Positions 1,283-15,826 of a DNA stretch of 15,826 nucleotides are shown here, piece by piece. Position 1 is the stretch's first letter. Each line of letters opens with the position of its first letter. This DNA comes from Candidatus Thorarchaeota archaeon. GTDB taxonomy: Archaea > Asgardarchaeota > Thorarchaeia > Thorarchaeales > Thorarchaeaceae. A model generated the notes under the pieces. The model had not been told where the DNA came from and ran no database searches. It saw only the letters and a program-made list of their open reading frames with translations. A program made the position numbers and the translations under genes. Location: assembly GCA_048882485.1 (NCBI GenBank), contig JBHLRP010000067.1, positions 1 through 15,826 of the forward strand. The letters are read 5' to 3'.

Positions 1283-1475
1283 AATAATATCTCCAAAAAC
1301 TGTTTCATAATGACGGTTCTAGAGGCACAGCAGCACTTTGAGTATTGTGTTTGGCGTGCCTAGAAATATGCCATTACCCTAGAGATTCATCAAGTGACAT
1401 GAATCCTCGCACCGATTGCGGCGCATAAATATACGAAAGATCTTAGAGCCGTTGATGATGACCCAGAATTGATTA

Positions 1476-4001
1476 CTACGCCTGAATTGGGTACTTTCTT
1501 CGTTCCCTAACTAGAGCCAAGACAATCAATGCTATTGTAGCCAAGCCGCCAAACCCCATGAGGATTATGATTGTGGGATCAGCGTAGCTCTCTTTCTGCA
1601 CGATGATCAGGACGGAATCACTTGCTGAGTTACCAGTAAAATCATAGACAGTTAGCTCGTACTCATAGGTTCCTATGACCTCACAGTCATGGAGAACTTC
1701 GATTTGTGAACCATTCCATTCATTCACATCCACCAAGGTTCCATTTCGATGAACTGTAAAGAGAGATGGATGGTAGCTCTTGGGATTCCAGATGATGGGC
1801 TGCAAGTCATCACCTGCCAAGCAAGCCAAATCAGCTGGCGAATCCATAACAGGTCGCATCATGAATGCGATTTCGTTCTCCCAAAGCTCAGTTGAGTCGC
1901 TATACGTTGAGTCATCTTGGTCGTTGGTCAATTGATCAATTGAGAATCCGTTATAGATCGTTTGGCTACCGTTGCCCAAAATCATGACAGCATTGCCAGT
2001 TTGCTCATTCATGGAGAGCCCTCCCAAAGCCAACCCACCATTCAATACTCTGAGCAAATCGCCATTGTCATCAATTGCGGACATTGGTGTGAAGTTGGCT
2101 GCACGATATTGATTTGGAAGATTGAATACAGGATGTGTCGTTTCCCAAATCCACAGAGGAGCAGTATCATTCAAGTTTGAGGAGTACTCAAATCCAAGCT
2201 TTCCCCAGAGACGATGAAGTGGAAGGTCATCCACTGCCACATAGGACATAATCAAGTGACCTCCTGTATCAATATACGATGCAAGATCACCAAGATGAAT
2301 GCCTAATAGCCCGCTATTCGGCACATCAATAATCACCAAGTCCCAGATTCCGGACTTTAGTGACAGTGCCATATAATTGATGGAAGTATGAAGCTGATAG
2401 GGTAGACCTAGGTCATTGAGAGCTAGAGCCACGGCTGATCCTTGACCATGGCTTTCCAACGCATCCAGATTTTGAAATAGCAATATTCTGGCTTGAGCAG
2501 CATTCAGCCAATTGATAGCATTGACTGCAAACCTTGCATTGTCATTTTCAGGAAGAAGTCCATTATCAAAGATATTCATGTCTCCAGAAAGAATAGCACG
2601 ACCTCTTCCAAAATCATGTCCAGCGACAACTGTGTTGCGATTTTCTTCCCACATAGATTCAGTATCTCCCCATATGGACTCGCTGATGATTAGGTGGTTT
2701 CTATCACCTACAGATAATGCTGTGGTGGAATCAGTTGCGGGCTGGAGAATGGGAGTTAGAATAGTATTGTTCAAGATGTCTGCAGTTCCCAGCCTCATGA
2801 AAAAGCCGTCGAAGAACCGATTGAGATAGATATAACCATCACCTCCAAGACCTGCTCTATCGCCCAGAACAAGAAGGCTGCCGCCCGCCTCCACCCATTC
2901 GAGAACGGCATCAATCTCTGACTGGTCGAAATCCAAATTAGGCCAAGTCAAAATGAGAACGTTGTATTCTGAAAGACGCTCAAGTGTGAGATTCCCATTA
3001 GGAGATGGATACAGTTTGTCAAAGACGTAAGTATGATTCACTATGAGATTTCTTAACTGGGAGAAGCTGTGAATGGGGGTATGGGTCGCTACGTATTTCT
3101 CATCCCAAGGATCCACGGCATATTGCGGCATGTGTGAAAGATCGAAGACAAGTCGCCCCGCGGCTCTGGGTGTGAGCCATTTGATTGAATCTATAATGAT
3201 ATTCTCAAAGTCCGAAGGAATAGATAGGCCATCGCCTGGGAGCTGCACAACACGCCCACCTCGAAGGGAATTGTCTACTGCAAAACCAGTTATCAAATTA
3301 GGTGCTGTCAGATTACTCAGCATCAATGTGATATCCTTGGCAATAGTTGACCCATTAAGTACGTCCCACGAAACTGTAGCCCAGTCAGCTGTTCGTTCGG
3401 AAATCACATCCCCTATATGATGAAACGTCATTGTTGGATGGCGTGCAGTCACATTCTGGGTGTCTGATTGAAAATAGTTCCATGCAATTCCGAAAGGATC
3501 ATAGTCGATTCCCGGGAAAATTATTCCTTCGTACCAGAGAAAACTAATAGCCCCGTTAAAGCTGAGAAGGCCGCCACCACCCAGCCAGAACTCTTTCACA
3601 AGCTTAGTAATCCTCTCTCGGGGAATGTTGTTGACCATGATAAAGACATCATAGTCAGCTGTAGCTAGTTTATGACTGAGGATGTCATTGGCTGTAAGCT
3701 TTGAAACACTATGGCCTATACTCGCGAGGATGCCAATAATCTCATCAAGATTGTTGGATAGCCCAGTTGCTTCCGAGTTCATCGGTGATGTCGTGTTAGA
3801 CTCATCATATATCGCCACTTTGAGTTCGCGAGGTATGGACTGCATTGGCATAAGGGGTGAAGGGGACGAATTTCCAGTTCTCTTCGCAGGTAAATTCCTA
3901 TGAGAAAACCCTAGCTCCGTGGATGTTGAATAGACAATAAGTGGACTAGCCAGGAGTATTAGAGCCAGAAAGAGAGGTAAGACATGTTTCAGACTCTGCA
4001 C
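1476..4001 (-). CDS. Membrane-anchored cell-surface protein: signal peptide, three tandem class-I GATase-like (DUF4350/GIFT/ThuA-like) domains, Ig-like domain, C-terminal TM helix
   Basis: 841-aa ORF with GTG start. Hydrophobic N-terminus (VLPLFLALILLASPLIV). Repeated 'YDV.I...P....EI..V..W/F...GG.LL' and 'N.I.WL' motifs. Ig-like 'IIWNP...FTVHRNGT...WNG...GTYEYELTVYDFTGNSASDSV'. TM 'IIILMGFGGLATIALIVLALV' followed by RERRK. Many N-x-S/T sequons. Confidence 0.8.
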   Translation of the reverse strand: MQSLKHVLPLFLALILLASPLIVYSTSTELGFSHRNLPAKRTGNSSPSPLMPMQSIPRELKVAIYDESNTTSPMNSEATGLSNNLDEIIGILASIGHSVSKLTANDILSHKLATADYDVFIMVNNIPRERITKLVKEFWLGGGGLLSFNGAISFLWYEGIIFPGIDYDPFGIAWNYFQSDTQNVTARHPTMTFHHIGDVISERTADWATVSWDVLNGSTIAKDITLMLSNLTAPNLITGFAVDNSLRGGRVVQLPGDGLSIPSDFENIIIDSIKWLTPRAAGRLVFDLSHMPQYAVDPWDEKYVATHTPIHSFSQLRNLIVNHTYVFDKLYPSPNGNLTLERLSEYNVLILTWPNLDFDQSEIDAVLEWVEAGGSLLVLGDRAGLGGDGYIYLNRFFDGFFMRLGTADILNNTILTPILQPATDSTTALSVGDRNHLIISESIWGDTESMWEENRNTVVAGHDFGRGRAILSGDMNIFDNGLLPENDNARFAVNAINWLNAAQARILLFQNLDALESHGQGSAVALALNDLGLPYQLHTSINYMALSLKSGIWDLVIIDVPNSGLLGIHLGDLASYIDTGGHLIMSYVAVDDLPLHRLWGKLGFEYSSNLNDTAPLWIWETTHPVFNLPNQYRAANFTPMSAIDDNGDLLRVLNGGLALGGLSMNEQTGNAVMILGNGSQTIYNGFSIDQLTNDQDDSTYSDSTELWENEIAFMMRPVMDSPADLACLAGDDLQPIIWNPKSYHPSLFTVHRNGTLVDVNEWNGSQIEVLHDCEVIGTYEYELTVYDFTGNSASDSVLIIVQKESYADPTIIILMGFGGLATIALIVLALVRERRKYPIQA

Positions 4002-4025
4002 CTCTCAAATTTGGGAACTTTTCGG

Positions 4026-4034
4026 TTTAATAAA
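4026..4034 (-). promoter_or_regulatory. Archaeal TATA box (TTTATTAAA) for a probably leaderless transcript of the 841-aa gene
   Basis: Minus strand reads aaggcaTTTATTAAAccgaaaagttcccaaatttgagagGTG; the box ends ~25 nt before the GTG, typical archaeal TATA-to-TSS spacing. Confidence 0.5.
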
Positions 4035-4039
4035 TGCCT

Positions 4040-5422
4040 TTACTTGGCAGCCTCAACCTCTTTGACAGATTCAATGAAGATCTCTAGTCCGGCTTCTGCA
4101 AGCTCTCTCGTTAGTACAACAGGAGGTAGAAACCGGACGACGTTGGAGAAATGGCCGCCTGTTTCGGTTATCAGTCCCTTCTGATAGCATGCTCTCTGAA
4201 CTTCATCGACAATTTCCGGCCATGGTTTCTTGCTTTTCTTGTCCTTCACGAATTCGATTCCTATCATCAAGCCCCTTCCGCGGGCATCTCCAATGAATTT
4301 GCACTCGTCCTGTAGTTCCTTCAGTCGTGGCAGGAAGACCTCTTCCCCCAGTCTAGCGGCATGATTCCATAGTCTGTGTTTCTTAATGAACCTCAAGGTT
4401 GCTACACCAGCTGCTAACGCGACCACATTGCCCCTGAATGTTCCCACATGAGTTCCCTTCGTCCAAGTATCAAGTTTCTTGTCGAAGACTATTACCGACA
4501 GAGGAAGACCGCCACCAATTCCCTTTGATATAGTCATGATATCAGGGGTGACACCTGAATGCTGGAGAGCCCACATCTTGCCAGTTCTACACATTCCAGC
4601 TTGAATCTCATCGATAATGAGGGGGATGGAATAGTCACTTGAGATTCTCCTGACCTCTTTGATATATTCGGCAGGAGCTGGAATTGATCCTCCCTCACCT
4701 TGAACGGCTTCTATGATAATACCTGCTGGATTAACTACTCCTGACCCGGGATCTTCCAAAATATGTTCAAGATATTTCGCGCATTCAAGACTGCAATCCG
4801 GATATTCCTTTCCAAAAGCACATCGATAGCAGTACGCATAAGGTACGAAATGCACTTCAGGAATCATTGGCATGATAGCCTTCTTGAATCTTTTATTCGC
4901 TGTCAATGTCACAGCGCCAGCTGTCATTCCATGATAGGCACCTTCAAAGGAAATCATGCCTACTCTCCCTGTATTGAACTTCGCTAGCTTCATTGCTGAC
5001 TCTACGGCATCAGAGCCTGTTGGAGCAACAAAGAATATCTTGGAACTGTCTCGCATCTTCTTAGGAAGGACTGACTGTATTTCATCTACGAGTTCCATCC
5101 TGATTGGTGATGGAAAATCGAGATTGTGAGTCAGTTTTTCCATCTGACTCTTAGCTGCTTCGACGACTTCCGGATTACAGTGCCCTATATTGAGCACTCC
5201 TGCGCCTGCAAAGAAATCGATGTAGATATTGTCATCCACATCTTTCAGAGTTGCACCCCTTCCTTCTTTGAAAGCTACTGGAATAGCATTTGGATAAGAA
5301 ACAGCAGCAGTTTCCACATTGACCTGCTTCTTCCGCATTTCTTTAGACTGAGGCCCAGGTGGCTTTTTGACAATCACCGGCGCTTTAGCAAAATGAAGGT
5401 TTCTCAAGTCCTCATCAGACAT
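4040..5422 (-). CDS. Class-III aminotransferase, 4-aminobutyrate / 2,4-diaminobutyrate aminotransferase-like; candidate beta-alanine transaminase (PydD-like role)
   Basis: 460 aa. YIDFFAGAGVLNIGH, PTGSDAVESAMKLAK, FEGAYHGMT, EAVQGEGG, IIDEIQAGMCRTG, PDIMTISKGIGGG (PLP Lys), HVGTFRGN, GRGLMIGIE, VRFLPP. GGAG SD upstream. Confidence 0.9.
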   Translation of the reverse strand: MSDEDLRNLHFAKAPVIVKKPPGPQSKEMRKKQVNVETAAVSYPNAIPVAFKEGRGATLKDVDDNIYIDFFAGAGVLNIGHCNPEVVEAAKSQMEKLTHNLDFPSPIRMELVDEIQSVLPKKMRDSSKIFFVAPTGSDAVESAMKLAKFNTGRVGMISFEGAYHGMTAGAVTLTANKRFKKAIMPMIPEVHFVPYAYCYRCAFGKEYPDCSLECAKYLEHILEDPGSGVVNPAGIIIEAVQGEGGSIPAPAEYIKEVRRISSDYSIPLIIDEIQAGMCRTGKMWALQHSGVTPDIMTISKGIGGGLPLSVIVFDKKLDTWTKGTHVGTFRGNVVALAAGVATLRFIKKHRLWNHAARLGEEVFLPRLKELQDECKFIGDARGRGLMIGIEFVKDKKSKKPWPEIVDEVQRACYQKGLITETGGHFSNVVRFLPPVVLTRELAEAGLEIFIESVKEVEAAK

Positions 5423-5446
5423 GCTGCCTACATCTCCATCGAAGCT

Positions 5447-6811
5447 CTAATTTCCTTCGGGTTCACGGTGAATATACTGACCAATTCCTGATTTTCCGAC
5501 TAATTCACCATCTTCTACGATAATATTGCCTCTGACCATTGTAAAGGTAGGCCAACCGAAAAGATCCATTCCTTCGTAGGTGCTGAAATCTCCAACAGAT
5601 GGCAATATCTCAGGCTTGAAGCGAATGCTTTTGTCGAGGTCTATAACAGCAAGATCAGCATCAAAGCCAACTTTCAAATCGCCCTTCCTTGGGTAGAGTC
5701 CAAAGACCTTTGCAGTATTGTAGCTGCACACCTCAACCACCTTCTCGAGATTGATCCTCCCTTTCTTCACTCCTTCAGTGATCATGATGGGAAGAATCAG
5801 ACCCATACCTGGAAAGCCTGGTGGCGCATTCCAAATATCTTCGCCCTTGTTCTCTCTAGTTATCGGTGCATGATCACTCCCGATGCAATCAATCGTACCA
5901 TTTCCCACTCCCCACCACAGCGTTTCGATGCTTTTCTTTCCTCTTAGGGGAGGTGCCACTTTGCCAAGAACTCCCAGGTCCATGTCATTTGTGAGCGTGA
6001 GATGGTGAGGTGTAGCTTCTGCAAAAATGGGCATGGACCTCTTTAGTCTGTGAATCGCTTCAACAGATTCCCCTGTGCTGACATGCACAACATATAGTGG
6101 AGACCCAACAAATCGGGCGATGGAAGCGGCGCGTACAACATTTTCCTCTTCGCAGAAATTCGGACGAGCTTCAGACCAGGCGGCAAGGTCTCTTCGGCCG
6201 TCCTCTATTAGCTTGGCCTTGAGCCTGTATGCGATTTCTACATTCTCCGCATGAATCAGGGGCAGTCCGGGATAGCCTATCTTTCCAATTTTGCGGAATC
6301 CTTCATAGAGAAGCCCATCATCTGCAGCTGTAATTCCAATCTGCTCTCCTTCCTCTCCTCGGTATGCCATGAAGAATTTGAATGAAGTCGTTCCATCGCG
6401 GACATAGTCATCTAACTCAGCCAAGTGCGTTTCAGACATTACTGCAAAATGAAATGCAAAATCTATGAGGGAATTCTCTTCAGCCATTCGTTTGTGATCA
6501 GCAAAGATCTTCGAATATGACCCTTTGTCAATCAAATGATGCATTACTGAGGTAATCCCACCCAATGCTGCAGCCTCGGTTTCAGTCCGACAATCCTGAT
6601 TGAAAGGAAAATATGATCCGAAATGGACGTGGGGGTCTATTGCTCCCGGCAAGACGAAGTTTCCCTTGCAGTCAATCACCCTATCAGCCTCCGGCAGCTT
6701 TGAGTCCGAGGCTACTACAACGACCTTTCCATCATCGATACCAAGCCCTGCCGAAACTACCTCGTTGCTTGAAACTATCCGACAGTTCTTGACAACAGTA
6801 TCAACACGCAT
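5447..6811 (-). CDS. hydA: Dihydropyrimidinase/hydantoinase-like cyclic amidohydrolase
   Basis: 454 aa. Binuclear metal ligands: PGAIDPHVH, SFKFFMAY (carboxylated Lys, hydantoinase-style), IHAEN, YVVHVST, GSDHAP. C-terminal PRKG..VGFDADL. Lacks the HxHxR motif of dihydroorotases. Confidence 0.8.
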   Translation of the reverse strand: MRVDTVVKNCRIVSSNEVVSAGLGIDDGKVVVVASDSKLPEADRVIDCKGNFVLPGAIDPHVHFGSYFPFNQDCRTETEAAALGGITSVMHHLIDKGSYSKIFADHKRMAEENSLIDFAFHFAVMSETHLAELDDYVRDGTTSFKFFMAYRGEEGEQIGITAADDGLLYEGFRKIGKIGYPGLPLIHAENVEIAYRLKAKLIEDGRRDLAAWSEARPNFCEEENVVRAASIARFVGSPLYVVHVSTGESVEAIHRLKRSMPIFAEATPHHLTLTNDMDLGVLGKVAPPLRGKKSIETLWWGVGNGTIDCIGSDHAPITRENKGEDIWNAPPGFPGMGLILPIMITEGVKKGRINLEKVVEVCSYNTAKVFGLYPRKGDLKVGFDADLAVIDLDKSIRFKPEILPSVGDFSTYEGMDLFGWPTFTMVRGNIIVEDGELVGKSGIGQYIHREPEGN

Positions 6812-6831
6812 CTCAATTCACTCTAAATCAG

Positions 6832-6849
6832 ATGTAAACTGCTTTACAT
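6832..6849. promoter_or_regulatory. Perfect 7-bp inverted repeat (ATGTAAA-ctgc-TTTACAT), candidate operator in the divergent hydA/preA promoter region
   Basis: Read directly from the sequence; overlaps a minus-strand TATA-like box TTTATGTA (6845-6852) about 34 nt upstream of the hydA ATG. Confidence 0.45.
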
Positions 6850-6946
6850 AAATCTAGCCATATGTTGTGTTTGATTTCTCACCAAAATGGCGCACTTTGA
6901 ATACACTTAATACTCTCGTAAACAAGTCAGGGATTTGTGATGTTCC

Positions 6947-8149
6947 ATGTCTGATTTATCAGTTAAATACGCAGGACTTGAAATGGATAGCCCCTATATC
7001 ATAGGATCAGGACCCATCTCGACGGACTTGAATACCATTGAAGAAGATAGAGCCAGGAAGATTGTGAAGAAAGTTGCTGATGCTGGTTGGGCTGGAATAG
7101 CCTTGAAGACGGTTGTCCATTATGAATCTGCGGAGAGGGCAGGACCGTACCTATGGAGCCCACATAATAAGATGCTGCCAGCTTCATTGCAGAATCTTGG
7201 ACCCTGGGAAACCAAAATCTCTGAAGAGAGGTTAAAGAAAAACATTCGTATAGCAAAGGAAGCGGGGCTTCTTGTTTTTGGCAATGTCTTAGGCACCTCT
7301 AAGGATGAATGGGACTCTTTGTGTAGAGCTATGGAGGAATGCGAAGCAGATGCGGTGGAACTGAATGTTTCGTGCCCACACGCTGGTCATGAGCTTCCTC
7401 TGATTGGTCAGGACCCTTCCTTTCTTGACGAAACCATTAGAATTGCTAAGAAGGCGTGTAGCATCCCGGTAATTCCCAAGCTGCCTGCGATTATCCATGA
7501 TATAGCTGCAGTGGCTAATGCAGGGCAAGCAGCTGGAGCAGATGCCATTGCGGCTATAAACACTGTTCCCGGGCTAATTGGTATAGACATTGAAACAGGC
7601 ATACCAATTCATCGTGATATCAGCAACAATGCCAGGTATAGCGGAATATCAGGACCGTTGATTAAGCCAATTGGTTTGGGATATGTAGCACAAATGGCTC
7701 GATTGATTGATATCCCCATATCCGGGATTGGAGGTATTAAGGACTGGAAGGATGCAGTGGAATATATCATGGTAGGAGCGACTGCAGTCCAAATCTGTAC
7801 AGAAGCAATGATGCAGGGATTTGATATGGGAATTGCACTTGTGAGTAGGCTTAGAGGCTTCCTAGATGACAAGGGGTATCAACGCCTTGATGAAATCCGG
7901 GGTCTTTCTCTGAAATACATCAAGACATCTATGGAAGAGATGGAAACATCCGCCAAAGCAGTTTCAGTAATCGATCCATCATTATGTACAGGATGTGAAG
8001 CATGTGTGACGGCGTGCGCAGATGCAGTAGTCGAAGCTATCCATATGGAAGAGGACATCGCGGTTGTAGACTCGAAAATATGTGTTGGCTGCGGGCTATG
8101 TGGAGTTGTCTGCCCCGTAGACGCGGTAAGCTTCATCAAAGAGGGCTAG
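6947..8149 (+). CDS. preA: Dihydropyrimidine dehydrogenase PreA-like subunit (DHODH-like FMN barrel + 2x[4Fe-4S] ferredoxin domain)
   Basis: 400 aa. GSGP, ALKT, VELNVSCPH (catalytic Cys), PKL, AINT, SGISG..IKPI, GIGGI, VQIC. C-terminal CTGCEACVTAC and CVGCGLCGVVCP. Confidence 0.85.
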   Translation: MSDLSVKYAGLEMDSPYIIGSGPISTDLNTIEEDRARKIVKKVADAGWAGIALKTVVHYESAERAGPYLWSPHNKMLPASLQNLGPWETKISEERLKKNIRIAKEAGLLVFGNVLGTSKDEWDSLCRAMEECEADAVELNVSCPHAGHELPLIGQDPSFLDETIRIAKKACSIPVIPKLPAIIHDIAAVANAGQAAGADAIAAINTVPGLIGIDIETGIPIHRDISNNARYSGISGPLIKPIGLGYVAQMARLIDIPISGIGGIKDWKDAVEYIMVGATAVQICTEAMMQGFDMGIALVSRLRGFLDDKGYQRLDEIRGLSLKYIKTSMEEMETSAKAVSVIDPSLCTGCEACVTACADAVVEAIHMEEDIAVVDSKICVGCGLCGVVCPVDAVSFIKEG

Positions 8150-8204
8150 CGTAAGTCGTGGAGAGCCCTCTGAAGCTCAACTCATCACTCAGATTCTGAT
8201 AGAC

Positions 8205-8252
8205 TTAAATAATGCCCTGAATGACATTCGTATTCAGTTATCATCGAGGTGA
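8205..8252 (+). promoter_or_regulatory. TATA-like box TTAAATAA (8205-8212) and Shine-Dalgarno GAGGTGA (8246-8252) of the carbamoyltransferase gene
   Basis: GAGGTGA is a typical archaeal SD and lies 5 nt before an in-frame TTG (8258). TATA spacing implies a short leader that contains the SD. Confidence 0.5.
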
Positions 8253-8257
8253 TTAAG

Positions 8258-9232
8258 TTGACACAATCCCTGAAAGGGCGGGACTTCATATCCCTATCAG
8301 ATTTTACCGGTGACGAGCTAATGCAATTCTTGGACACAGCAGCAGAACTGAAGGACAAATTGAAACGTGGCGAGCCACACCAGATCCTGAAGGGGAAGAC
8401 ATTAGCCGAGATTTTTGAATGGCCTTCAACTCGGACGAGAACTTCGTTCGAAGTCGGTATACAACAGCTTGGAGGTCATGGAATATATTACTCGAAACAG
8501 GCGTATTGGAGCAAGGGTGGAGAGGCAATAAAGGACTCAGCACAAGTCCTTTCCCGATACGTGCACGGCATAGCATGGAGAAGCTTCAGTCATGAGGACA
8601 TTCTAGAAATGGCAAAGTATGCTACGGTCCCGGTCATTAATGCTAACTCTGATTTTGAGCACCCTTGCCAGGTCCTAGCTGACTTCATGACCACTCGAGA
8701 GAAAAAAGGGAAGCTAGAAGGCATTAAGACAGTGATTATGTGGACATATGCTGATTTCCCAGCACCAATTGGAATCGTCAATTCAACGATGTTTGCTGGT
8801 GGAAAATTGGGTATGGATGTGGTACTCTCTTACCCAGAAGACTACGGTCCAGAGAAGAAGGTGTTTGATATAGCTGAGAAGGAGGCTAAGAAGTCTGGAG
8901 GGTCTATCACTGTAGTTGAGGATTACAAGGAAGCGCTCAAGGATGCAGATGTCATTCACATTAAGACATGGGCGAAACCCGAAGATTACCGGAGAGGATT
9001 TGATGAATACAAACCTCCTCACGTCCTAGAACCAGAAAAGTACAATCACTGGAAATTGACGCAAGATCTAGTTGACTTGGGAAAGAAAGATGTCATAGTT
9101 CAGCATGCCCTTCCAGTTGTGCGAAAAGTACAAGCAACCGAAGCAGTGCTAGATGGTCCTAATTCGGTAATCTATGATGAGGCTGAGAATCGTTTGCATA
9201 CTCAGAAGGCTGTAATGGCTCTTACCATGTAA
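8258..9232 (+). CDS. Carbamoyltransferase (OTCase/ATCase family) with knotted-clade (AOTCase/SOTCase/YgeW-like) motifs; acceptor substrate probably neither ornithine nor aspartate
   Basis: Carbamoyl-phosphate motifs FEWPSTRTR, WR, HPCQ..AD, HALP, EAENRLH. Has IMWTYADFPAP (Pro-rich loop) and IHIKTWA in place of the OTCase GD..N and DxxxSMG motifs. Start moved from the track's GTG 8249 to TTG 8258 because that GTG lies inside the SD. Confidence 0.88.
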   Translation: MTQSLKGRDFISLSDFTGDELMQFLDTAAELKDKLKRGEPHQILKGKTLAEIFEWPSTRTRTSFEVGIQQLGGHGIYYSKQAYWSKGGEAIKDSAQVLSRYVHGIAWRSFSHEDILEMAKYATVPVINANSDFEHPCQVLADFMTTREKKGKLEGIKTVIMWTYADFPAPIGIVNSTMFAGGKLGMDVVLSYPEDYGPEKKVFDIAEKEAKKSGGSITVVEDYKEALKDADVIHIKTWAKPEDYRRGFDEYKPPHVLEPEKYNHWKLTQDLVDLGKKDVIVQHALPVVRKVQATEAVLDGPNSVIYDEAENRLHTQKAVMALTM

Positions 9233-9338
9233 TGAAACCTAATTCAATATAGCGAGCCATTTGCATGCAGGCCGAATTTGTGACAGCGGGAATTCATGTG
9301 TCTACACACTGAAACGATATTCCATAGCGATCCCAGTA

Positions 9339-10253
9339 CTATCCACCCTCAAACGGAATGCCAAGGCTCTTGGGCTTGCTTTTCCTGACCTTTGGTATAA
9401 AGACCAGAATGCCGATGCTAACAATATATGGCAAGGTCAGTAGTAGCTCGAAGGGAATCTCAGTGGTCAATTGAAGTTGAAACTGGATGCTAATGAAGAA
9501 TGAGAAAATGAGAGAGCCAAATATTGACCAGACCGGGTTCCAACTTGCCAGCTTGATTATAGCGATTGCTATAAAGCCTGCTCCGGATGTTATATTATCA
9601 GCCCATATCCCTGTAGTTCCCAAAGTGTAGAAGCTGCCTGCTAGCCCGCCGAATAGTCCTGATATTATCATACAGATGCATCGGGTACGCGAAACATTGA
9701 CACCAAGCAGATTAGTCCCCCAAGGGTTCTCCCCAACTGCTCGAACCCTTAAACCAAAGGAAGTTCTTCTTAGAATGTACAGAGAAATGATGGCTAGTGC
9801 TATTGCTCCATAGGTCATCACATTCTGATTCATAAATGCGCCAATTATGGGAATCTCAGAAAGACCGGGGATGATGATTGGCTGAAAAGGAGTAACACTG
9901 ACGCCCTCACCGAGCGGATATATTGTTGCCCACCAAAAATAGCTGCTGAGACCTTGTCCTGCAAGCCAGAAACCTATGCCCATGACAGTCTGATCAACTT
10001 TGAGATAGACGGCAAAAATGGACATCACCAGTCCAAAAAGGAATCCCACTACGAGAGCAGCAATGACGCCCACAATAATGTTCTGGAAATATACAGCAGC
10101 CGTAAATCCCACTGACGCACTCACAAGCATAATACCCTCTATGCCAATGTTAAGTACTCCAGACCGCTCTGCATATGCTAGTCCTGTTGCTGCAAAGATT
10201 AGAGGTGTTGCGGCAACGAGCATGCTAATTAGCATAGAATCAACGACCGTCAC
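9339..10253 (-). CDS. Nucleoside/sugar (CUT2, NupC/YufQ-type) ABC transporter permease
   Basis: 304 aa hydrophobic protein. ATPLIFAATG...ERSGVLNIGIEGIML, T.FGLRVRAVGENP, G.GFIAIA, LPYI. AAGGAGG SD; GTGA overlap with the upstream gene. Confidence 0.92.
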   Translation of the reverse strand: MTVVDSMLISMLVAATPLIFAATGLAYAERSGVLNIGIEGIMLVSASVGFTAAVYFQNIIVGVIAALVVGFLFGLVMSIFAVYLKVDQTVMGIGFWLAGQGLSSYFWWATIYPLGEGVSVTPFQPIIIPGLSEIPIIGAFMNQNVMTYGAIALAIISLYILRRTSFGLRVRAVGENPWGTNLLGVNVSRTRCICMIISGLFGGLAGSFYTLGTTGIWADNITSGAGFIAIAIIKLASWNPVWSIFGSLIFSFFISIQFQLQLTTEIPFELLLTLPYIVSIGILVFIPKVRKSKPKSLGIPFEGG

Positions 10254-11344
10254 TCAGCTACCTCCTTCGACCTTGGAAATTGGCGTATAGCATCCATTGA
10301 ACGGCTTATCGCTTGTTTGATTCTGGTCAGAACCTGTTGCCTGTCACGATAGATTCTTCTTGACCATGCTACTGCATGCCTGAAGTTATTCTTAAGAAGA
10401 GAGAAGATAATCACCATGGCCATAATTGTATTGATGAATGTTATTGGTAATCCAGTCCTGATGTTCAAATATTCTCCTCCTGAGTAAAGCATCGAAAAGA
10501 AGAATGCAAATGGTAATACTGCGATGGCATGGATATCAGCCAACATGGTAATCCCAATGCCGATATATCCGTACCCTGGAGAGAAGTCGATAACTAAAAT
10601 GCGAGTTATATTAGTCATTAGGAACACCCCACTCAATCCAGCAATCATCCCACTTATCGCCATGGCAAGCATGACCAATCTATTCCTCTTCATCCCAGCA
10701 TATTCTGCGGCTTGCGGATTCGATCCGAGTGCTCTAATCTCATAACCTATCGTAGTTCTAGTCATAAGAAAGTAGAGTAGGAAGGCTAGAATTAAGACAA
10801 TAAGAGCTCCTGTCAATAAGTCCAAATTGTAGGGTATGGGTAGTGATTGATTTCCTGCTTGTGAGGTGTCCCTAAGAGAACCTTCAGGGCCCACGAAGTA
10901 GCCCGTTATGAAAATGGCTATGTAGTTCATGAAGAGTGTTGTGACAATCTCATCAGCATCGAATTTGATTTTCAGAATTCCTGCTATAATACCCCAAAGG
11001 CCGCCTAATAGAATAGCGGCCATACTGCATACTATGATATTTGCATACGATGGATATAACGTGAAAATATAGGTGGCAGCTAATGCCCCCATGTAGATCT
11101 GCCCCTCTGCGCCCAATGTCCAGATTCTCATTTTGAAGGGAATCACCATGCTCAAGCCGATCAAAACAAAGACAACCCATCTATCCGCAGTGTTGAAAAA
11201 TCCCCAAAGAGTACCAATAGACCCCTGTATCAAGTACCGGTAGACTAGAAGGACATCAAAGCCAACCATAAGACTCAGTAGCCCACCCAAGAAGACAGCC
11301 AATAGGATAGCTAGTCCACTGTATAGATAATTCTCATACTTCAT
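10250..11344 (-). CDS. Nucleoside/sugar (CUT2, NupB/YufP-type) ABC transporter permease
   Basis: 364 aa. LGAEGQIYMGA, ADEIVTTLFMNYIA, TTIGYEIRALGSNPQAAEYAGM, GYGYIGI. ATGA overlap with the ATPase gene. Confidence 0.92.
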   Translation of the reverse strand: MKYENYLYSGLAILLAVFLGGLLSLMVGFDVLLVYRYLIQGSIGTLWGFFNTADRWVVFVLIGLSMVIPFKMRIWTLGAEGQIYMGALAATYIFTLYPSYANIIVCSMAAILLGGLWGIIAGILKIKFDADEIVTTLFMNYIAIFITGYFVGPEGSLRDTSQAGNQSLPIPYNLDLLTGALIVLILAFLLYFLMTRTTIGYEIRALGSNPQAAEYAGMKRNRLVMLAMAISGMIAGLSGVFLMTNITRILVIDFSPGYGYIGIGITMLADIHAIAVLPFAFFFSMLYSGGEYLNIRTGLPITFINTIMAMVIIFSLLKNNFRHAVAWSRRIYRDRQQVLTRIKQAISRSMDAIRQFPRSKEVAE

Positions 11345-12870
11345 TCTCCAGTACCTCGACTTCCTGTAAGCATCATTGCACCCATGTCGTCTATGCTTAT
11401 TTCTGCTGATGGGAAAGCCCCAACTGATGACCCATCGAAAAGGACAACTATCCTATCGCTGAGTTGCTTTAGTTCATTAAGCTCTTCGGATAAAATTAGT
11501 ATTCCAATTCCTTTCTTCTTCAATGCAAGAATTCTTTGCCATACGCTTCGAGTGGTCCTTATATCAAGCCCTGCGGTTGGATTAACGAGAACTAATAGTT
11601 TTAGATTCCGTCTTAGGAATTCCCTTGCAAGCACGAGTTTCTGCGCATTGCCCCCTGATAGACACGATGCAGGGGCATCTATACTTTCAGTTATTACATT
11701 CAGTTCTTCAACGCATTTAGCGGCATGCTCTCTGACAGGAGGTACTGCTATCAGATTCCGCGCCGCATATGTTCGGTCATCATACTCGGTTAATACCGAG
11801 TTCTCTGCCACAGTGAAATCACGAACAAGAGCAACCAGATTGGCACCTTCTGGAACATAGCCTACTCCAGATTTGATGATGCTTTTGGTATTGAGCTTCC
11901 GTATTTCCATTTCATTAATCATGATGGTTCCATTGGTTCCTTTTCTTAAACCAAGCATTGTTTCGACTAATTCCAGCTTCCCTGACTTAGGAGTGCCCGC
12001 CACACCAACAATTTCTCCACCAAATATCTCAAGCTGGAAATTCTTCAACCTAGTTGCGCCTTTATCGTCCTTGCTGGAAAGATTCTGGATAGATAGAATT
12101 CGATCAGCTATTTCTACGGTTGGCCGTTCCACTTCCAGCTCTATTTCTTCACCAACCATTCCCCTTATGAGCTCCTCTCGAGTTAGCTCCTTGGTTGGCT
12201 TTGTAAATATCACCGTCCCTTGTCTGAGAACTGTTAGTGTGTCCGAATAGTCTAGGGCCTCAGATAGCTTATGTGTTGTATAGAAAACGCCTATCCCTTC
12301 CTCCAATAATCTCCGTAGATGGCCGTATAGGGTTTCTGCGTACTGGGGAGGGAGCATAGAGGTCGGCTCATCCAGGATTAGCAGCTTCAAATCACAACAC
12401 AATGCACGCACGACTTCTATCTTCTGCCGTTCAGCGTATGGCAGAAAATCAATATCGCAATCCAAATCAAGACTGTAACCCAATTCCTTCTCCCATCTTT
12501 GCAGAACATGTTCTGCCTCCACAAACGATGGGACCACTCTTCTTGAGAATCTCTCTGTGATTAGCAGGTTTTCTATCGCGTTGAAGATGCCGACAAGACT
12601 GCTATGTTGAGCAACCATCATCATTCCTTTTTTGATAGCATCTCGAGGCGAAGAGAAATCAACAAGTGAGCCATCAACATATATCTCGCCTTCATCGGGC
12701 TCATAAACGCCCATCAAGACCCGCATGAGCGTGGTCTTCCCTGCCCCATTCTCTCCAACCAGTGCGTGGAGTTCTCCCCTCTGAATATCTAGCTCAATCT
12801 GGTTGTTAGCTACAACGTCACCAAAGGTCTTGGTTATGTTTCTGATTTGGATAAAGGGAGGATCGTTCAT
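11341..12870 (-). CDS. Two-domain ABC ATPase of nucleoside/sugar importer (NupA/YufO-type)
   Basis: 509 aa. Walker A GENGAGKT, Walker B LILDEPT, THKL. Second domain has degenerate Walker A (GTPKSGK), YVPE, LSGGNAQK, PTAGLD, SEELNEL. Confidence 0.95.
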   Translation of the reverse strand: MNDPPFIQIRNITKTFGDVVANNQIELDIQRGELHALVGENGAGKTTLMRVLMGVYEPDEGEIYVDGSLVDFSSPRDAIKKGMMMVAQHSSLVGIFNAIENLLITERFSRRVVPSFVEAEHVLQRWEKELGYSLDLDCDIDFLPYAERQKIEVVRALCCDLKLLILDEPTSMLPPQYAETLYGHLRRLLEEGIGVFYTTHKLSEALDYSDTLTVLRQGTVIFTKPTKELTREELIRGMVGEEIELEVERPTVEIADRILSIQNLSSKDDKGATRLKNFQLEIFGGEIVGVAGTPKSGKLELVETMLGLRKGTNGTIMINEMEIRKLNTKSIIKSGVGYVPEGANLVALVRDFTVAENSVLTEYDDRTYAARNLIAVPPVREHAAKCVEELNVITESIDAPASCLSGGNAQKLVLAREFLRRNLKLLVLVNPTAGLDIRTTRSVWQRILALKKKGIGILILSEELNELKQLSDRIVVLFDGSSVGAFPSAEISIDDMGAMMLTGSRGTGE

Positions 12871-12903
12871 AAGAATTCACGATCCTCCATAGATATCTAA
12901 ATC

Positions 12904-13947
12904 CTATGGCATGGTTGTAGTCACAGCTGGCAAAGTGAATGTTCCAGCGTTAATGTCGGCGATGACATCATCGACCATGTCTTGTGCGTCTTGCGGTATC
13001 GCCTCCTCAAGATCGTGGTAAGGAGCTATTCCGGTAGCACCATCTGCTATACCCAGAGTAAGGAAGGTACCTCCAAAAGTGCCATCTAATACATCTTGTA
13101 GTAGAGATGTAAGATACGCATCTCTGATGTAGAGCACACTCGTAAGAATGACAGCTGGTGCTAACTCATACTCGTCCCAATCGTATCCAATGGCATAGAC
13201 TCCGCGAGTCAGACATTCAGCTAATACACCATGGACTAATCCTTGTCCAGTTGCCGCCAAAACATCCGCTCCGGCATCTATGAGTGACGAGGCAGCGGTC
13301 GCACTCTTGACAGCGTCATGCCAATCGCCAGTGAAGAGATATTGTCCTGTCACACTTGCGTTATAGGCTTGAGCTCCAGCCATAAGCATATTGAAGATTC
13401 TTGCATTGTCAGGGAAATCAAATGCGGAAATCCAGCCAATAACTCCTGATGATGTCATAGAGCCAGCTATTATTCCCGCCAGATAGTATCCTTTCCAAAT
13501 GTCCCAAGCCATTACAGATACGTTTCCTGTAGCAGAATCGCTTGTCCATCCGCCACTTCCTATGAAGTATACGTTTGGATAGTCCTCAGCAAGTGTTGCC
13601 ACCGTCCCTTCATACGTCACATCATTGCAGACTAGCACATCATAGCCATCAAGGATGTATGCTTCCGCAACACTTCCAAACTCTGCAGGTCCCACATTGA
13701 AGCTAGCAGAAACCTGTATTGGAGTTTCGGTCGTGTTCAAAGCTTCCGCAACACGTAGAAGACTTTCATGGTTTACTCTTGCCCATGCAAAAGAAAGATC
13801 ACCTGTTTCAATCTGTGCTATTTTGAGAGCTTCGCCTTCTGGAGGAGGTGCCTCCCCAGGAAGGAAGACGTATAGTCCAATGCCAACTGCAGCTATTATC
13901 ACGATAATGACAACAATCGCGCCATACTGTTTCGTGTTTGACAACAA
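12904..13947 (-). CDS. BMP/PnrA-family nucleoside-binding substrate-binding protein with N-terminal TM anchor
   Basis: 347 aa. TM AIVVIIVIIAAVGIGLYVFL. GYYLAGIIAGSMTSSGVIGWISA, FTGDWHD..K, LIDAGADVL, AIGYDWDE, ILTSV. AAGGAGG SD (13953-13959) 5 nt before TTG. Confidence 0.9.
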   Translation of the reverse strand: MLSNTKQYGAIVVIIVIIAAVGIGLYVFLPGEAPPPEGEALKIAQIETGDLSFAWARVNHESLLRVAEALNTTETPIQVSASFNVGPAEFGSVAEAYILDGYDVLVCNDVTYEGTVATLAEDYPNVYFIGSGGWTSDSATGNVSVMAWDIWKGYYLAGIIAGSMTSSGVIGWISAFDFPDNARIFNMLMAGAQAYNASVTGQYLFTGDWHDAVKSATAASSLIDAGADVLAATGQGLVHGVLAECLTRGVYAIGYDWDEYELAPAVILTSVLYIRDAYLTSLLQDVLDGTFGGTFLTLGIADGATGIAPYHDLEEAIPQDAQDMVDDVIADINAGTFTLPAVTTTMP

Positions 13948-13984
13948 TTAAGCCTCCTTGCCGTATACATCGAATTTCCTGTAC

Positions 13985-13997
13985 TATATATCTTTCG
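13985..13997 (-). promoter_or_regulatory. BRE-TATA promoter (CGAAAGA-TATATA) of the ABC transporter operon
   Basis: Purine-rich BRE-like heptamer directly before TATATA on the minus strand, about 38 nt upstream of the TTG; the SD would fall within a short leader. Confidence 0.55.
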
Positions 13998-14017
13998 AAA
14001 ATCCCGATTATTTTCGA
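13995..14017. promoter_or_regulatory. Perfect 8-bp inverted repeat TCGAAAAT-N7-ATTTTCGA, candidate operator
   Basis: Read directly from the sequence; overlaps the BRE of the ABC operon promoter in the divergent intergenic region. Confidence 0.45.
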
Positions 14018-14127
14018 CACATCACCAGCATATTACAGCCCAATATGATACCATCTCAATTAATAGCAATACTTTTAGGCATGATATCAACTATTATTGA
14101 GTTATTTGAAAGATTGAGTTGGAGATT

Positions 14128-15540
14128 ATGGACGTATTCGAATCATTGGTGAAGATTGTAGGAAAAAGCAATGTTACAAAGGACCCAGCAGAATCCTATG
14201 TTTATAGATTTGGACACTGTCCTTCAGGAGACACTTCAGATTTTGGCGGAGCACCAGATATAGTGGTCATGCCTGAAACGGTTGAGCAGGTTTCTGAGAT
14301 TGTAAAATTAGCTAATGAAACAAAAACGCCTATCGTACCAAGAGGGAGCGGTTCAAGCCAATATGGAGGTACAGCTTTTGAAGGCGGAATCACACTGGAT
14401 ATGGCATTGATGGACAAAATACTGAGCATTGATGAAGATAACATGGTGATTGAGGCTGAGGGAGGCTGCAGCGTCTATAAATTAATGCGCGCACTGGATC
14501 AGAGGAATCTCAGGTTTCCAATTTCACCAATATACACATCAGGCCCACAGGTTGGTTCAGCTGTTGCCACAAACATAACTGGATACATGATTTGTAGAAC
14601 CGGGAGGATGGGTGATCTAATCGTAGGTCTGGAAGTTGTTTTGCCCAATGGCGAAGTGGTCACATTGGGCTCAGGTGCCTACAAAGAAGGGTACGGGCAT
14701 TACCATAGGTACACGGGCGGTCCAGATACAGTGGGTCTGTTTGTGAATTCCATGGGTCACTTGGGAGTAATCACAAAGGTTGCCACTCGTGTACTACCTA
14801 AGCCTTTGGAGATATTCATTGGATACGCTTGGCCTAGGGACAAGATAAACGAAGTAACCGACTGCATGTATGAATTGCAGCGATACGGTGTATACGATAT
14901 TTACATGATGGACTGGTGGGGCTTTAGAGAAGCACAGGAGAGGGGAATCCTTTCCATTCCAAAAGACGCATACTTCATAGCAAACATCATGGAAGCAGCA
15001 TTTACTGAGGAAGAACTAGAGATAAGGAGAAGGAAGGTCAAAGAAATTTGCGAGAGATATGGCGGGTCTGATGTATCAGAATTGTCATATTCTCTAATGG
15101 GCCCTCCCAAATGGTCTGCGTGGGATAGCGGATGTTCTCAGGAGTGGGGCGGAAGGAATCTGGTTCCCTATTGGTACAATCCAGTGAAGGCGTTCCCAGA
15201 TGTGTATGAATTGTGGGAGAGACTCGTGAAGAAATACAACTTTTGGGATGAGAAGCATTACGTTGGATGGTTCAGCTGGGCTGACAGGAATACAATGAAT
15301 CCGTATCCTATCGTGAAGGTATATCACGAAGAACTTGACAGGACTGCGAAACTATGGAATGAACTCAACATTGAGTTGACTAAAAGAGGGGCATGCCAGT
15401 ACGCTATTGGTGGCACATTGCCGATAGAGGTAGTGAGAGATTTAGGACCAGCACACAACCTAGTTGAGAAAATCAAGGGACTTCTTGACCCAAATGGAAT
15501 CATGAATCCCAGTCCAATCCTTAGAGGTGATTCGAATTGA
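14128..15540 (+). CDS. FAD-binding oxidoreductase, GlcD/D-lactate dehydrogenase-like (VAO/PCMH fold)
   Basis: PDIVVMPETVEQVSEIVKLAN, IVPRGSGSS..GG, IEAEGG, GLEVVLPNGEV, GPD..GLF...G.LGVITK, KGLLDPNGIMNP. ATG 14128 follows GGAG; the track's start is TTG 14119. Confidence 0.88.
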   Translation: MDVFESLVKIVGKSNVTKDPAESYVYRFGHCPSGDTSDFGGAPDIVVMPETVEQVSEIVKLANETKTPIVPRGSGSSQYGGTAFEGGITLDMALMDKILSIDEDNMVIEAEGGCSVYKLMRALDQRNLRFPISPIYTSGPQVGSAVATNITGYMICRTGRMGDLIVGLEVVLPNGEVVTLGSGAYKEGYGHYHRYTGGPDTVGLFVNSMGHLGVITKVATRVLPKPLEIFIGYAWPRDKINEVTDCMYELQRYGVYDIYMMDWWGFREAQERGILSIPKDAYFIANIMEAAFTEEELEIRRRKVKEICERYGGSDVSELSYSLMGPPKWSAWDSGCSQEWGGRNLVPYWYNPVKAFPDVYELWERLVKKYNFWDEKHYVGWFSWADRNTMNPYPIVKVYHEELDRTAKLWNELNIELTKRGACQYAIGGTLPIEVVRDLGPAHNLVEKIKGLLDPNGIMNPSPILRGDSN

Positions 15541-15826
15541 TGCTAGAGAAAATCAAAGAGGGTTTGTTCTCCTGTAATGGATGTGGAGCATGTTTCGGAA
15601 GGGGCCCTCAAAATCCCTTTAGAGAGGAAGATTTCGCACCCCCGGGATTTTGCCCGATGATCAATCATTTCAAGTTTGAGGCATATTCTCAAAGGGGATT
15701 ATCCCTTATTGCGCGCGGAGTCCTCTACGAGAAACTTCCTTTGACTGAAGATCTTGTTAGAATAGTATACACATGCACCGGATGCGGCACATGCGAGGAG
15801 GTATGCAAACCTATTCCCACAAGTGA
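15540..15826 (+). CDS. Fe-S oxidoreductase, GlcF/HdrD-like, N-terminal part (runs off the window)
   Basis: Absent from the ORF track. TGATG overlap with the upstream gene, SD GAGGTGA at 15524-15530. MLEKIKEGLFSCNGCGACFGRGPQNPFREEDFAPPGFCPMINHFKFEAYSQRG...VYTCTGCGTCEEVCKPIPTS contains two [4Fe-4S] motifs arranged as in GlcF/HdrD N-termini. Confidence 0.85.
   Translation, partial: MLEKIKEGLFSCNGCGACFGRGPQNPFREEDFAPPGFCPMINHFKFEAYSQRGLSLIARGVLYEKLPLTEDLVRIVYTCTGCGTCEEVCKPIPTS

Follow-up and report, generated by a model that had tools for sequence, protein, structure and literature searches.

A transcarbamylase gene at positions 8258..9232 of the forward strand was analysed within a 15,826-nucleotide (nt) stretch of Candidatus Thorarchaeota DNA (assembly GCA_048882485.1, contig JBHLRP010000067.1, positions 1 to 15,826), referred to below as the window; the contig is designated C67. 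The encoded enzyme and its closest relatives, here termed family T, have an intact carbamoyl-phosphate site, have lost the residues that bind ornithine, lie outside the canonical ornithine transcarbamylases (OTCases) in phylogenies and are encoded in a conserved neighbourhood. By sequence comparison, the best explanation is that family T forms a small, previously uncharacterised and misannotated clade of knotted-type transcarbamylases and does not consist of true OTCases. The window enzyme is very probably catabolic, and it is slightly more probable than the contrary that family T acts as a catabolic beta-alanine/beta-aminoisobutyrate transcarbamylase feeding carbamate kinase.

Transcarbamylase gene and sequence motifs

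One uninterrupted open reading frame runs over 8249/8258-9232 (+), and the Pfam domains OTCace_N (E 2e-48) and OTCace (E 1.6e-34) cover the full length of the protein. The NCBI gene call gives 327 amino acids (aa) from GTG 8249. TTG 8258 is the better start, because the motif GAGGTGA lies 5 nt upstream of it, GTG 8249 falls inside that motif and, by alignment, the nearest homologues start at the same residue. Residue numbers are counted from the GTG start throughout (minus 3 for the TTG start). The features of the gene, with motifs read from the translation, are:

8246..8252 (+), Shine-Dalgarno-like GAGGTGA
8258..9232 (+), transcarbamylase gene of family T, 324 aa from TTG 8258, OTCace_N and OTCace
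8426..8440 (+), carbamoyl-phosphate motif STRTR, aa 60-64, invariant in family alignments
8504..8524 (+), 80's loop YWSKGGE, non-extended, with W87 for the Gln of OTCase and the family-invariant K89
8660..8671 (+), carbamoyl-phosphate motif HPCQ, aa 138-141
8741..8785 (+), Pro-rich loop WTYADFPAPIGIVNS, aa 165-179, in the place of GDGNN
8957..9052 (+), HIKTW (aa 237-241) followed by the enlarged 240's loop AKPEDYRRGFDEYKPPHVLEPEKYNHW, from alignments and translation
9104..9115 (+), HALP for HCLP, aa 286-289, from translation and family comparison

An ENR motif is found at aa 313-315, and R111 and the Arg that follows HxLP are also intact. The ornithine elements are swapped: DxxxSMG is replaced by HIKTWAKPE, GDGNN by WTYADFPAPIG and HCLP by HALP. 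In the 240's loop region, K239 occupies the position of the ornithine-binding Asp, and H258, P262 and W268 are family-specific. Relative to the Pyrococcus furiosus OTCase, the carbamoyl-phosphate domain is almost unchanged, and the window enzyme has 6 inserted residues in the GDGNN loop and 8 after the SMG position. DxxxSMG, GDGNN and the aspartate transcarbamylase (ATCase) signatures HPLP and RxQxER were all absent from the translated protein. The initial annotation of this DNA, made from the letters alone, had described intact STRT, HPCQ and ENR motifs, the loss of DxxxSMG and GDGNN, the change of HCLP to HALP and the lack of both ATCase signatures; translation and family comparison agreed with each of these readings.

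Substitutions, extent and annotation of family T

Nineteen family T members were set against 144 canonical OTCases. Fully or almost invariant in family T were W87 (Q in OTCase), K89 (G), W165 (G), G175 (N), H237 (Y), K239 (D) and A287 (C), as well as W268 and an insertion bearing H258 and P262. W165 and G175 are the counterparts of the first G and the last N of GDGNN, and A287 is that of the Cys of HCLP. The ornithine-binding Asp was present in 100% of the 144 OTCases and is replaced by an invariant Lys239 in family T; the loss of the alpha-amino-binding residues and the presence of a Lys, both proposed in the initial annotation, were thereby confirmed. On this comparison the replacements are not due to chance.

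About 20 clusters with the same signature (52-92% identity) were recovered from a search of 5.8 billion proteins. Next below them came a sister group with CWVS.DPSIDYKKPP, HCKNW and NALP, and then ordinary OTCases at 45-49%. Profile searching of 1.84 billion representatives clustered at 50% identity added very few more. In 60 relatives of the Thorarchaeota genome no family T orthologue was found and only canonical OTCase was matched (38-50%). The family was present in 1 of the 301 sampled genomes of the phylum to which the Bathyarchaeota metagenome-assembled genome (MAG) carrying locus L018 (see below) belongs. Family T is rare.

MAGs of Candidatus Thorarchaeota, Bathyarchaeia and Methanomicrobia account for the named members, all of which are labelled ornithine carbamoyltransferase (argF). 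This automated label, anticipated in the initial annotation, arises because the protein passes the OTCase equivalog model TIGR00658 of NCBIfam (292.1, cut-off 280.85), a match that accounts for the label and is no demonstration of function. Scores fell below the cut-off for NF001986 (292.4, cut-off 306), the N-acetylornithine transcarbamylase (AOTCase) model NF003384 (225.6, cut-off 288), the YgeW models TIGR03316 (86 bits, cut-off 500) and NF005538 (96 bits, cut-off 453), the putrescine transcarbamylase (PTCase) model TIGR04384 (240.3, cut-off 500) and the ATCase model TIGR00670 (124.7, cut-off 237).

Phylogenetic position

Phylogenies were computed with IQ-TREE (LG+C20+F+G4 by posterior mean site frequencies) on 48 rows rooted with ATCase, and support is given as ultrafast bootstrap/SH-aLRT. 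Family T formed a clade with support 100/97. It was placed, together with Escherichia coli YgeW, AOTCase-like enzymes and other Pro-rich-loop variants, in a 32-row clade with support 97/93, in a tree that contains no reference sequence of the Xanthomonas campestris AOTCase or of the Bacteroides fragilis N-succinylornithine transcarbamylase (SOTCase). Canonical OTCases were a separate group (94/89). A quick tree of 81 rows gave the same picture with weaker support. Since family T lies outside the OTCase group, the nesting among ordinary OTCases that the initial annotation had named as evidence against its proposal was not observed.

The Thorarchaeota genome encodes five transcarbamylases: an OTCase (contig C40), an ATCase (C14), two enzymes on C27 and the window enzyme. 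Those on C27 (locus L114; 5412-6452 and 18802-19857, both on the reverse strand) are non-canonical and have oligopeptide-type ABC transporter genes around them. The first is AOTCase-like and narrowly passes NF003384 (289.5, cut-off 288); the other carries HCGP and SRNW motifs. In the Bathyarchaeota genome, a second atypical transcarbamylase of the sister type (CWTFGLWPKPP, YLKSW and NAMP) was seen on contig C16 (60,473-63,957; L151), adjoining two more genes similar to PreA and dihydroorotate dehydrogenase and 20 kb from the family T cluster.

Loops and structural model

The Pro-rich loop WTYADFPAPIGIVNS aligned with TWAYSPSYGKPLSVPQG of YgeW and with SWAYSPSVHKPLAVPQS of the AOTCase-like protein and is one residue shorter. 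In the same alignment the 240's loop starts with K-x-W and ends with K-[HD]-W in family T, YgeW and the AOTCase-like protein, and its length is 25 residues in family T and 26 in the AOTCase-like protein. K239 of HIKTW sits at the position of K252 of AOTCase and K236 of SOTCase, where those enzymes bind their second substrate. The Pro-rich loop and K-x-W had been recognised from the sequence as marks of the knotted enzymes, and the residue-for-residue alignment with YgeW bore this out.

No extended 80's loop was found in family T in the alignment; the loop has the length of that of OTCase, though it bears a Trp. The 120's loop likewise carries no extension and no insertion relative to OTCase, as against 10 additional residues in the AOTCase-like protein and about 5 in YgeW. 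Knotted transcarbamylases are recognised by an extended 120's loop together with a Pro-rich loop (Shi et al. 2015, PMC4581275), and under this definition the missing 120's extension counts against a knotted assignment.

An AlphaFold2 (AF2) model, built from a 133-sequence alignment, had a pLDDT of 95.8 (88-97 over the two critical loops) and a pTM of 0.93. The TM-scores from Foldseek were 0.90 with OTCase 1a1s and 0.87 with AOTCase 3kzk, and VIA-align gave Z 43.2 for OTCase 1a1s (309 residues, 2.0 Å) and Z 40.8 for 3m5c (307 residues, 1.6 Å); these superpositions do not discriminate knotted from unknotted topology, and OTCase and AOTCase tie. The family T enzyme is putatively trefoil-knotted, which would have its C-terminal chain thread the Pro-rich loop (3-1 knot); the knot is rated likely from the place of the family in the tree, from the lengths of its loops and because the model superposes almost completely on AOTCase. 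A knotted family T enzyme would be the first of the knotted type to lack the 120's extension.

Gene neighbourhood in the window

The genes around the transcarbamylase gene are:

6947..8149 (+), PreA-like reductase (DHO_dh fold and two 4Fe-4S), NF006183 287.6, below the cut-off of 335
5447..6811 (-), dihydropyrimidinase/hydantoinase-like cyclic amidohydrolase, TIGR02033 314, below the cut-off of 393
4040..5422 (-), class-III (omega-type) aminotransferase, candidate beta-alanine transaminase, 24 nt downstream of the amidohydrolase gene
9339..13947 (-), Bmp/PnrA-type (nucleoside-type) ABC importer with binding protein, ATPase and two permeases, converging on the transcarbamylase gene

The PreA-like gene is co-oriented with the transcarbamylase gene and lies 108 nt upstream of it, and the amidohydrolase gene is divergent from the PreA-like gene. 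No arginine-pathway genes were found in the window. The carbamate kinase of the Thorarchaeota genome (TIGR00746 374.7, cut-off 358) is encoded at the start of contig C49 (215-1192). A RidA (L-PSP) gene directly follows it there (C49 215-1619; L113), and at L018 a RidA-like gene (16288-16707) lies between the molybdopterin enzyme and carbamate kinase; ridA of E. coli also neighbours pyrBI.

Family T loci in other genomes and metagenomes

A scan of metagenomes with the family-specific C-terminal segment alone gave 8 loci. Genome contigs were scanned with the whole-family alignment, which gave one true orthologue (L018) among the matches listed; the HPCQ motif drew ordinary OTCases. With the window, these make ten family T loci (window, L018 and L115-L122). 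They are given below with the identity of each transcarbamylase to that of the window.

L115, 91%: gene order as in the window, on a short contig that ends before the hydrolase position
L116, 67%: importer, transcarbamylase and PreA-like gene (73% identical), on a short contig that ends before the hydrolase position
L018 (Bathyarchaeota MAG), 66%: importer, transcarbamylase, PreA-like gene (72%) and hydrolase (68.5%)
L117, 59%: weakly PreA-like neighbour and, no more than 10 kb away, genes for an old yellow enzyme (OYE)-type flavin reductase and a dihydropyrimidinase-like protein
L118, 59%: transcarbamylase gene immediately preceded by that of an OYE-type flavin reductase, and two more transcarbamylase paralogues
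L119, 53%: transcarbamylase, dihydropyrimidinase (TIGR02033 522.7, above 393) and, two genes off, carbamate kinase
L120/L121, 53%: dihydropyrimidinase (529.8), luciferase-like reductase, aminotransferase, aldehyde dehydrogenase, Bmp importer and a second YgeW/AOTCase-like transcarbamylase
L122, 52.5%: two hydrolases and a second transcarbamylase

The recurrent theme combines a ring reductase, a cyclic amidohydrolase and a transcarbamylase; carbamate kinase joins them on contigs of which enough was seen, and a nucleoside-type importer is frequent. The cyclic amidohydrolase gene adjoins the transcarbamylase gene in the window, L018, L119, L120/L121 and L122 and lies within 10 kb of it in L117; none was found at L118. 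A Bmp-type importer adjoins the transcarbamylase gene in the window, L018, L115, L116 and L120. Farther out, L018 contains a molybdopterin oxidoreductase, the RidA-like gene, a second PreA-like gene and, 8 kb away, carbamate kinase (TIGR00746 370.7, cut-off 358). The hydrolases of L119 and L120 are 45% identical to the canonical dihydropyrimidinase of the Thorarchaeota genome and 36-37% identical to E. coli HyuA.

Neither a decarbamoylase of nitrilase or M20 type nor a YgeX homologue was found in the ten loci or on contig C97, into which the window contig runs; SsnA and YgeY homologues were likewise not found in the ten loci. In the Bathyarchaeota genome of L018 no intact nitrilase-type and no M20 carbamoylase was found; its sole nitrilase-family gene is in three broken pieces.

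Proposed pathway

Under the favoured reading, the Bmp-type ABC system would import a nucleoside or nucleobase, the pyrimidine ring of which would be reduced by the PreA-like Fe-S flavoenzyme. The dihydropyrimidinase-like hydrolase would then open the ring to yield N-carbamoyl-beta-alanine (from thymine, N-carbamoyl-beta-aminoisobutyrate). The transcarbamylase, working in the phosphorolytic direction, would replace beta-ureidopropionase and release beta-alanine and carbamoyl phosphate; carbamate kinase would gain one ATP per ring, and the adjacent class-III aminotransferase would dispose of beta-alanine. Lys239 might bind the carboxylate of beta-alanine, and the charge reversal from Asp to Lys would suit an acceptor whose carboxylate is two carbons away from the nitrogen that reacts.

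The type of reductase varies among the family T loci (PreA-like, OYE-like or luciferase-like) and the residues of the acceptor pocket are invariant; one common acceptor fits, because the pocket stays the same while the reductase changes. The beta-alanine-type acceptor proposed in the initial annotation stands in part: the neighbourhood points to an N-carbamoyl beta-amino acid, an argument drawn from context and weakened by a canonical hydrolytic cluster in the same genome. A catabolic beta-alanine transcarbamylase 'remains to be proven' according to Shi et al. (2015, PMC4581275), and no description of one was found in the full-text literature since 2015 (subscription-only papers not covered). 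The joint reading, in which family T is this postulated beta-alanine transcarbamylase, yields one ATP per pyrimidine ring in Thorarchaeota and Bathyarchaeia and is the smallest knotted transcarbamylase, is put forward tentatively, at a little under even chances.

Evidence against the favoured reading and alternative explanations

Several observations weigh against a beta-alanine transcarbamylase. A canonical hydrolytic set is encoded on contig C13 (L125, about 44,375-45,610 and 55,640-59,358), with a PreA that scores 446 (cut-off 335) and with a class-III aminotransferase, a nitrilase-family, beta-ureidopropionase-like amidase and a dihydropyrimidinase (492.5, cut-off 393) side by side; the Thorarchaeota genome thus holds a hydrolytic route as well as a putative phosphorolytic module. 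The PreA-like protein (287.6) and the hydrolase (314) of the window fall short of their equivalog cut-offs and are about 35% identical to the C13 proteins. Because of the canonical set on C13 and the divergence of the window enzymes, the module of the window is taken to be either a duplicate route that was gained laterally and yields ATP or one that serves a different ring. The best solved relative of the window hydrolase is the L-hydantoinase 1gkr, and carbamate kinase is encoded off the window contig. The link of the aminotransferase to the pathway may be accidental, since homologues with 76-78% identity are present in related genomes that lack the module. Phosphorolysis of a ureido compound is thermodynamically unfavourable and needs the pull of carbamate kinase. 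L118, L120 and L122 pair the family T enzyme with a second YgeW/AOTCase-like transcarbamylase, and L122 has two hydrolases; by analogy, these twin-transcarbamylase loci recall the purine route with two ureido groups (PMC12507026). The product peak of YgeW was smaller than that of UacY, its hydrolase replacement in Clostridioides difficile (PMC12507026).

In one alternative, the same phosphorolytic mechanism acts on the ureido product of the neighbouring hydrolase and the ring is neither uracil nor thymine. The starting compound might be a substituted pyrimidine, for example orotate, from which N-carbamoyl-aspartate would form; a 5-substituted hydantoin, which would yield an N-carbamoyl-alpha-amino acid; or a purine-derived intermediate, for example 3-ureido-alanine or 2,3-diureidopropionate, leading to 2,3-diaminopropionate. 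This is possible, if on the whole unlikely. The divergent, sub-threshold reductase and hydrolase of the window beside a canonical uracil set on C13, the L-hydantoinase as nearest solved hydrolase, and the molybdopterin oxidoreductase and second PreA-like gene of L018 all speak for it. So do the paired transcarbamylases of L118, L120 and L122 and the two hydrolases of L122, which resemble the reductive urate pathway with UacX, HyuA and YgeW (PMC12507026); two invariant Lys and two invariant His in the pocket could moreover bind more than one acidic group. However, a single hydrolase and a single transcarbamylase are encoded in each of the clusters of the window and L018, the L119 and L120 hydrolases belong to the canonical dihydropyrimidinase type, and the class-III aminotransferases and the aldehyde dehydrogenase of the clusters suit a beta- or omega-amino acid product. 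The lack of the aspartate-binding signatures RxQxER and HPLP disfavours N-carbamoyl-aspartate. The purine (urate) route is less likely for the window, as the family T loci lack SsnA, YgeY and YgeX homologues and no diaminopropionate ammonia-lyase was found in the genome.

A biosynthetic direction, in which an amine would be carbamoylated into a ureido metabolite as by the diaminopropionate/diaminobutyrate transcarbamylases of natural-product clusters, is very improbable. Carbamoylation is the thermodynamically favoured direction of transcarbamylase reactions, and such enzymes are found in the viomycin, zwittermicin and padanamide clusters (PMC4581275). None of the loci, however, has biosynthetic genes of the non-ribosomal peptide synthetase type, and the conserved partners (importer, ring reductase, ring hydrolase and carbamate kinase) are laid out as in known catabolic modules.

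That the enzyme is an ordinary anabolic or catabolic OTCase, as annotated, can practically be dismissed in spite of the TIGR00658 match and of P. furiosus OTCase as its best solved relative by sequence (E 3e-84, 46-48% identity), because the DxxxSMG Asp, the SMG loop, the GDGNN Asn and the HCLP Cys are all replaced, invariantly across the family, NF001986 is not reached, the protein lies outside the canonical OTCase clade, a canonical OTCase is encoded on C40 and the window is devoid of arginine-pathway genes.

Comparison with known systems

In E. coli, YgeW (PDB 3Q98) and the carbamate kinase YqeA serve the reductive uric-acid pathway (PMC12507026) and are a close parallel to the favoured reading. 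YgeW belongs to the same 97/93 clade as family T and has the W-x-Y...P-rich loop and the K-x-W and K-[HD]-W that open and close the 240's loop. The logic of YgeW-YqeA is also that of the proposal, in that a ureido group produced by a neighbouring cyclic amidohydrolase is phosphorolysed and ATP is gained through carbamate kinase. YgeW is nevertheless only 29% identical to the window enzyme and is longer (396 against 324 aa). Its extra terminal helices, long 240's insertion and 120's extension are missing in family T, and it has HCLP where family T has HALP. The window differs from the YgeW neighbourhood by a PreA-like reductase and a single hydrolase, without SsnA, YgeY and YgeX.

Family T shares with the AOTCase of X. 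campestris (3KZK) and the SOTCase of B. fragilis a Pro-rich loop of near-equal length, the Lys at the K252/K236 position and the 80's Trp. The AF2 model superposed on 3KZK and 3M5C over 307 residues (1.6-1.8 Å, Z 40.7-40.8). Unlike these enzymes, family T lacks the extended 80's and 120's loops and has HALP instead of HCLP; the setting of AOTCase is arginine synthesis, and that of family T is catabolic ring degradation.

The P. furiosus OTCase (1A1S / 1PVV) is the best solved relative both by sequence and by fold (Z 43.2). Its carbamoyl-phosphate domain is nearly identical to that of family T, and its 80's and 120's loops have equal lengths. Family T differs from it in the replacement of all the ornithine-binding residues, in the insertions of 6 and 8 residues and in its position outside the OTCase clade.

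Beta-ureidopropionase, of nitrilase or M20 type, has the same proposed substrate, yields beta-alanine and takes the step after dihydropyrimidinase; its canonical version is encoded on C13. Its fold is unrelated, and the reaction is a hydrolysis and not a phosphorolysis. In the proposed route ATP could be obtained because phosphorolysis keeps the carbamoyl group as carbamoyl phosphate. A precedent for such a replacement is offered by PTCase and carbamate kinase in the agmatine deiminase pathway, where they take the place of the hydrolytic N-carbamoylputrescine amidase and ATP is gained. PTCase is unknotted and, unlike family T, keeps the OTCase-like Asp and loop. The arrangement at the family T loci is that of known ureide modules which yield ATP, namely arcB-arcC, PTCase plus carbamate kinase, and YgeW-YqeA (PMC12507026).

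Implications

In the literature consulted, conservation of the ureido group is not described for the known routes of pyrimidine degradation (reductive, oxidative, Rut and URC). If the favoured reading is true, uracil and thymine would be an energy source for anaerobes, as are arginine, agmatine and urate, and Asgard archaea (Thorarchaeota) and Bathyarchaeia would gain one ATP by substrate-level phosphorylation for each pyrimidine ring fermented. Family T is a concrete and expressible candidate, with its partner genes adjoining, for the question posed by Shi et al. (2015). Metabolic reconstructions of Asgard archaea and Bathyarchaeia would miscount arginine synthesis and miss a fermentation module, because the OTCase equivalog passes family T as argF.

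A member of the knotted clade with 80's and 120's loops of OTCase length would help to explain how the transcarbamylase knot evolved. If the enzyme is knotted, a Pro-rich loop and a threaded 240's loop would occur without the 80's and 120's extensions, and the knot would be older than the extensions.

Contig context and further genes

Mis-binning of C67 was considered and ruled out. The tetranucleotide and GC composition of the contig is typical of the genome, and its flanking aminotransferases have homologues with 67-78% identity in related genomes. Another Candidatus Thorarchaeota contig at NCBI encodes an aminotransferase, a hydrolase and a reductase with at least 90% identity in consecutive records (MFW9889428-30), and carries a fragment of a close transcarbamylase homologue; the fragment falls in the 90% cluster of P0003, a protein with 92% identity to the window enzyme. 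This is independent support for assigning the window to Thorarchaeota. The patchy distribution of family T and its Bathyarchaeota sister sequences suggest lateral exchange between Thorarchaeota and Bathyarchaeia; GC is 0.43-0.47 across the window and gives no compositional sign of a recent transfer, although the 60 relatives searched yielded no orthologue.

At the left end of the window, a second class-III aminotransferase gene (2-1282, -) is interrupted by the contig end; because it has 67-68% DNA identity to genes in two related genomes, the left end of the window looks native to the lineage. The next gene (1476-4001, -) encodes an 841-aa protein with weak DUF4350/ThuA-like matches. A paralogue with 39% identity is encoded on C8 (16,229-18,622), about 3 kb from an SsnA-like amidohydrolase (21,389-22,693; 335 bits, below the cut-off), and the 841-aa protein may have a role in N-heterocycle catabolism. 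A third cluster of the heterocycle type was seen on C53 (3,000-15,000; L126), with two genes similar to aldehyde ferredoxin oxidoreductase, a PreA-like gene (182 bits), an M24 peptidase and an allantoinase/dihydroorotase-like hydrolase; the same contig begins with an SsnA-like fragment (30-986).

The right end of C67 runs into C97 through an identical overlap of 77 nt (window 15750-15826, C97 1-77). Across this junction, an FAD-linked oxidase (window 14119-15540) is followed by a CCG-domain Fe-S protein (C97 91-963), which make up a GlcD/GlcF-like pair, and next on C97 are a class I/II aminotransferase, an Lrp/AsnC regulator and an M24 peptidase.

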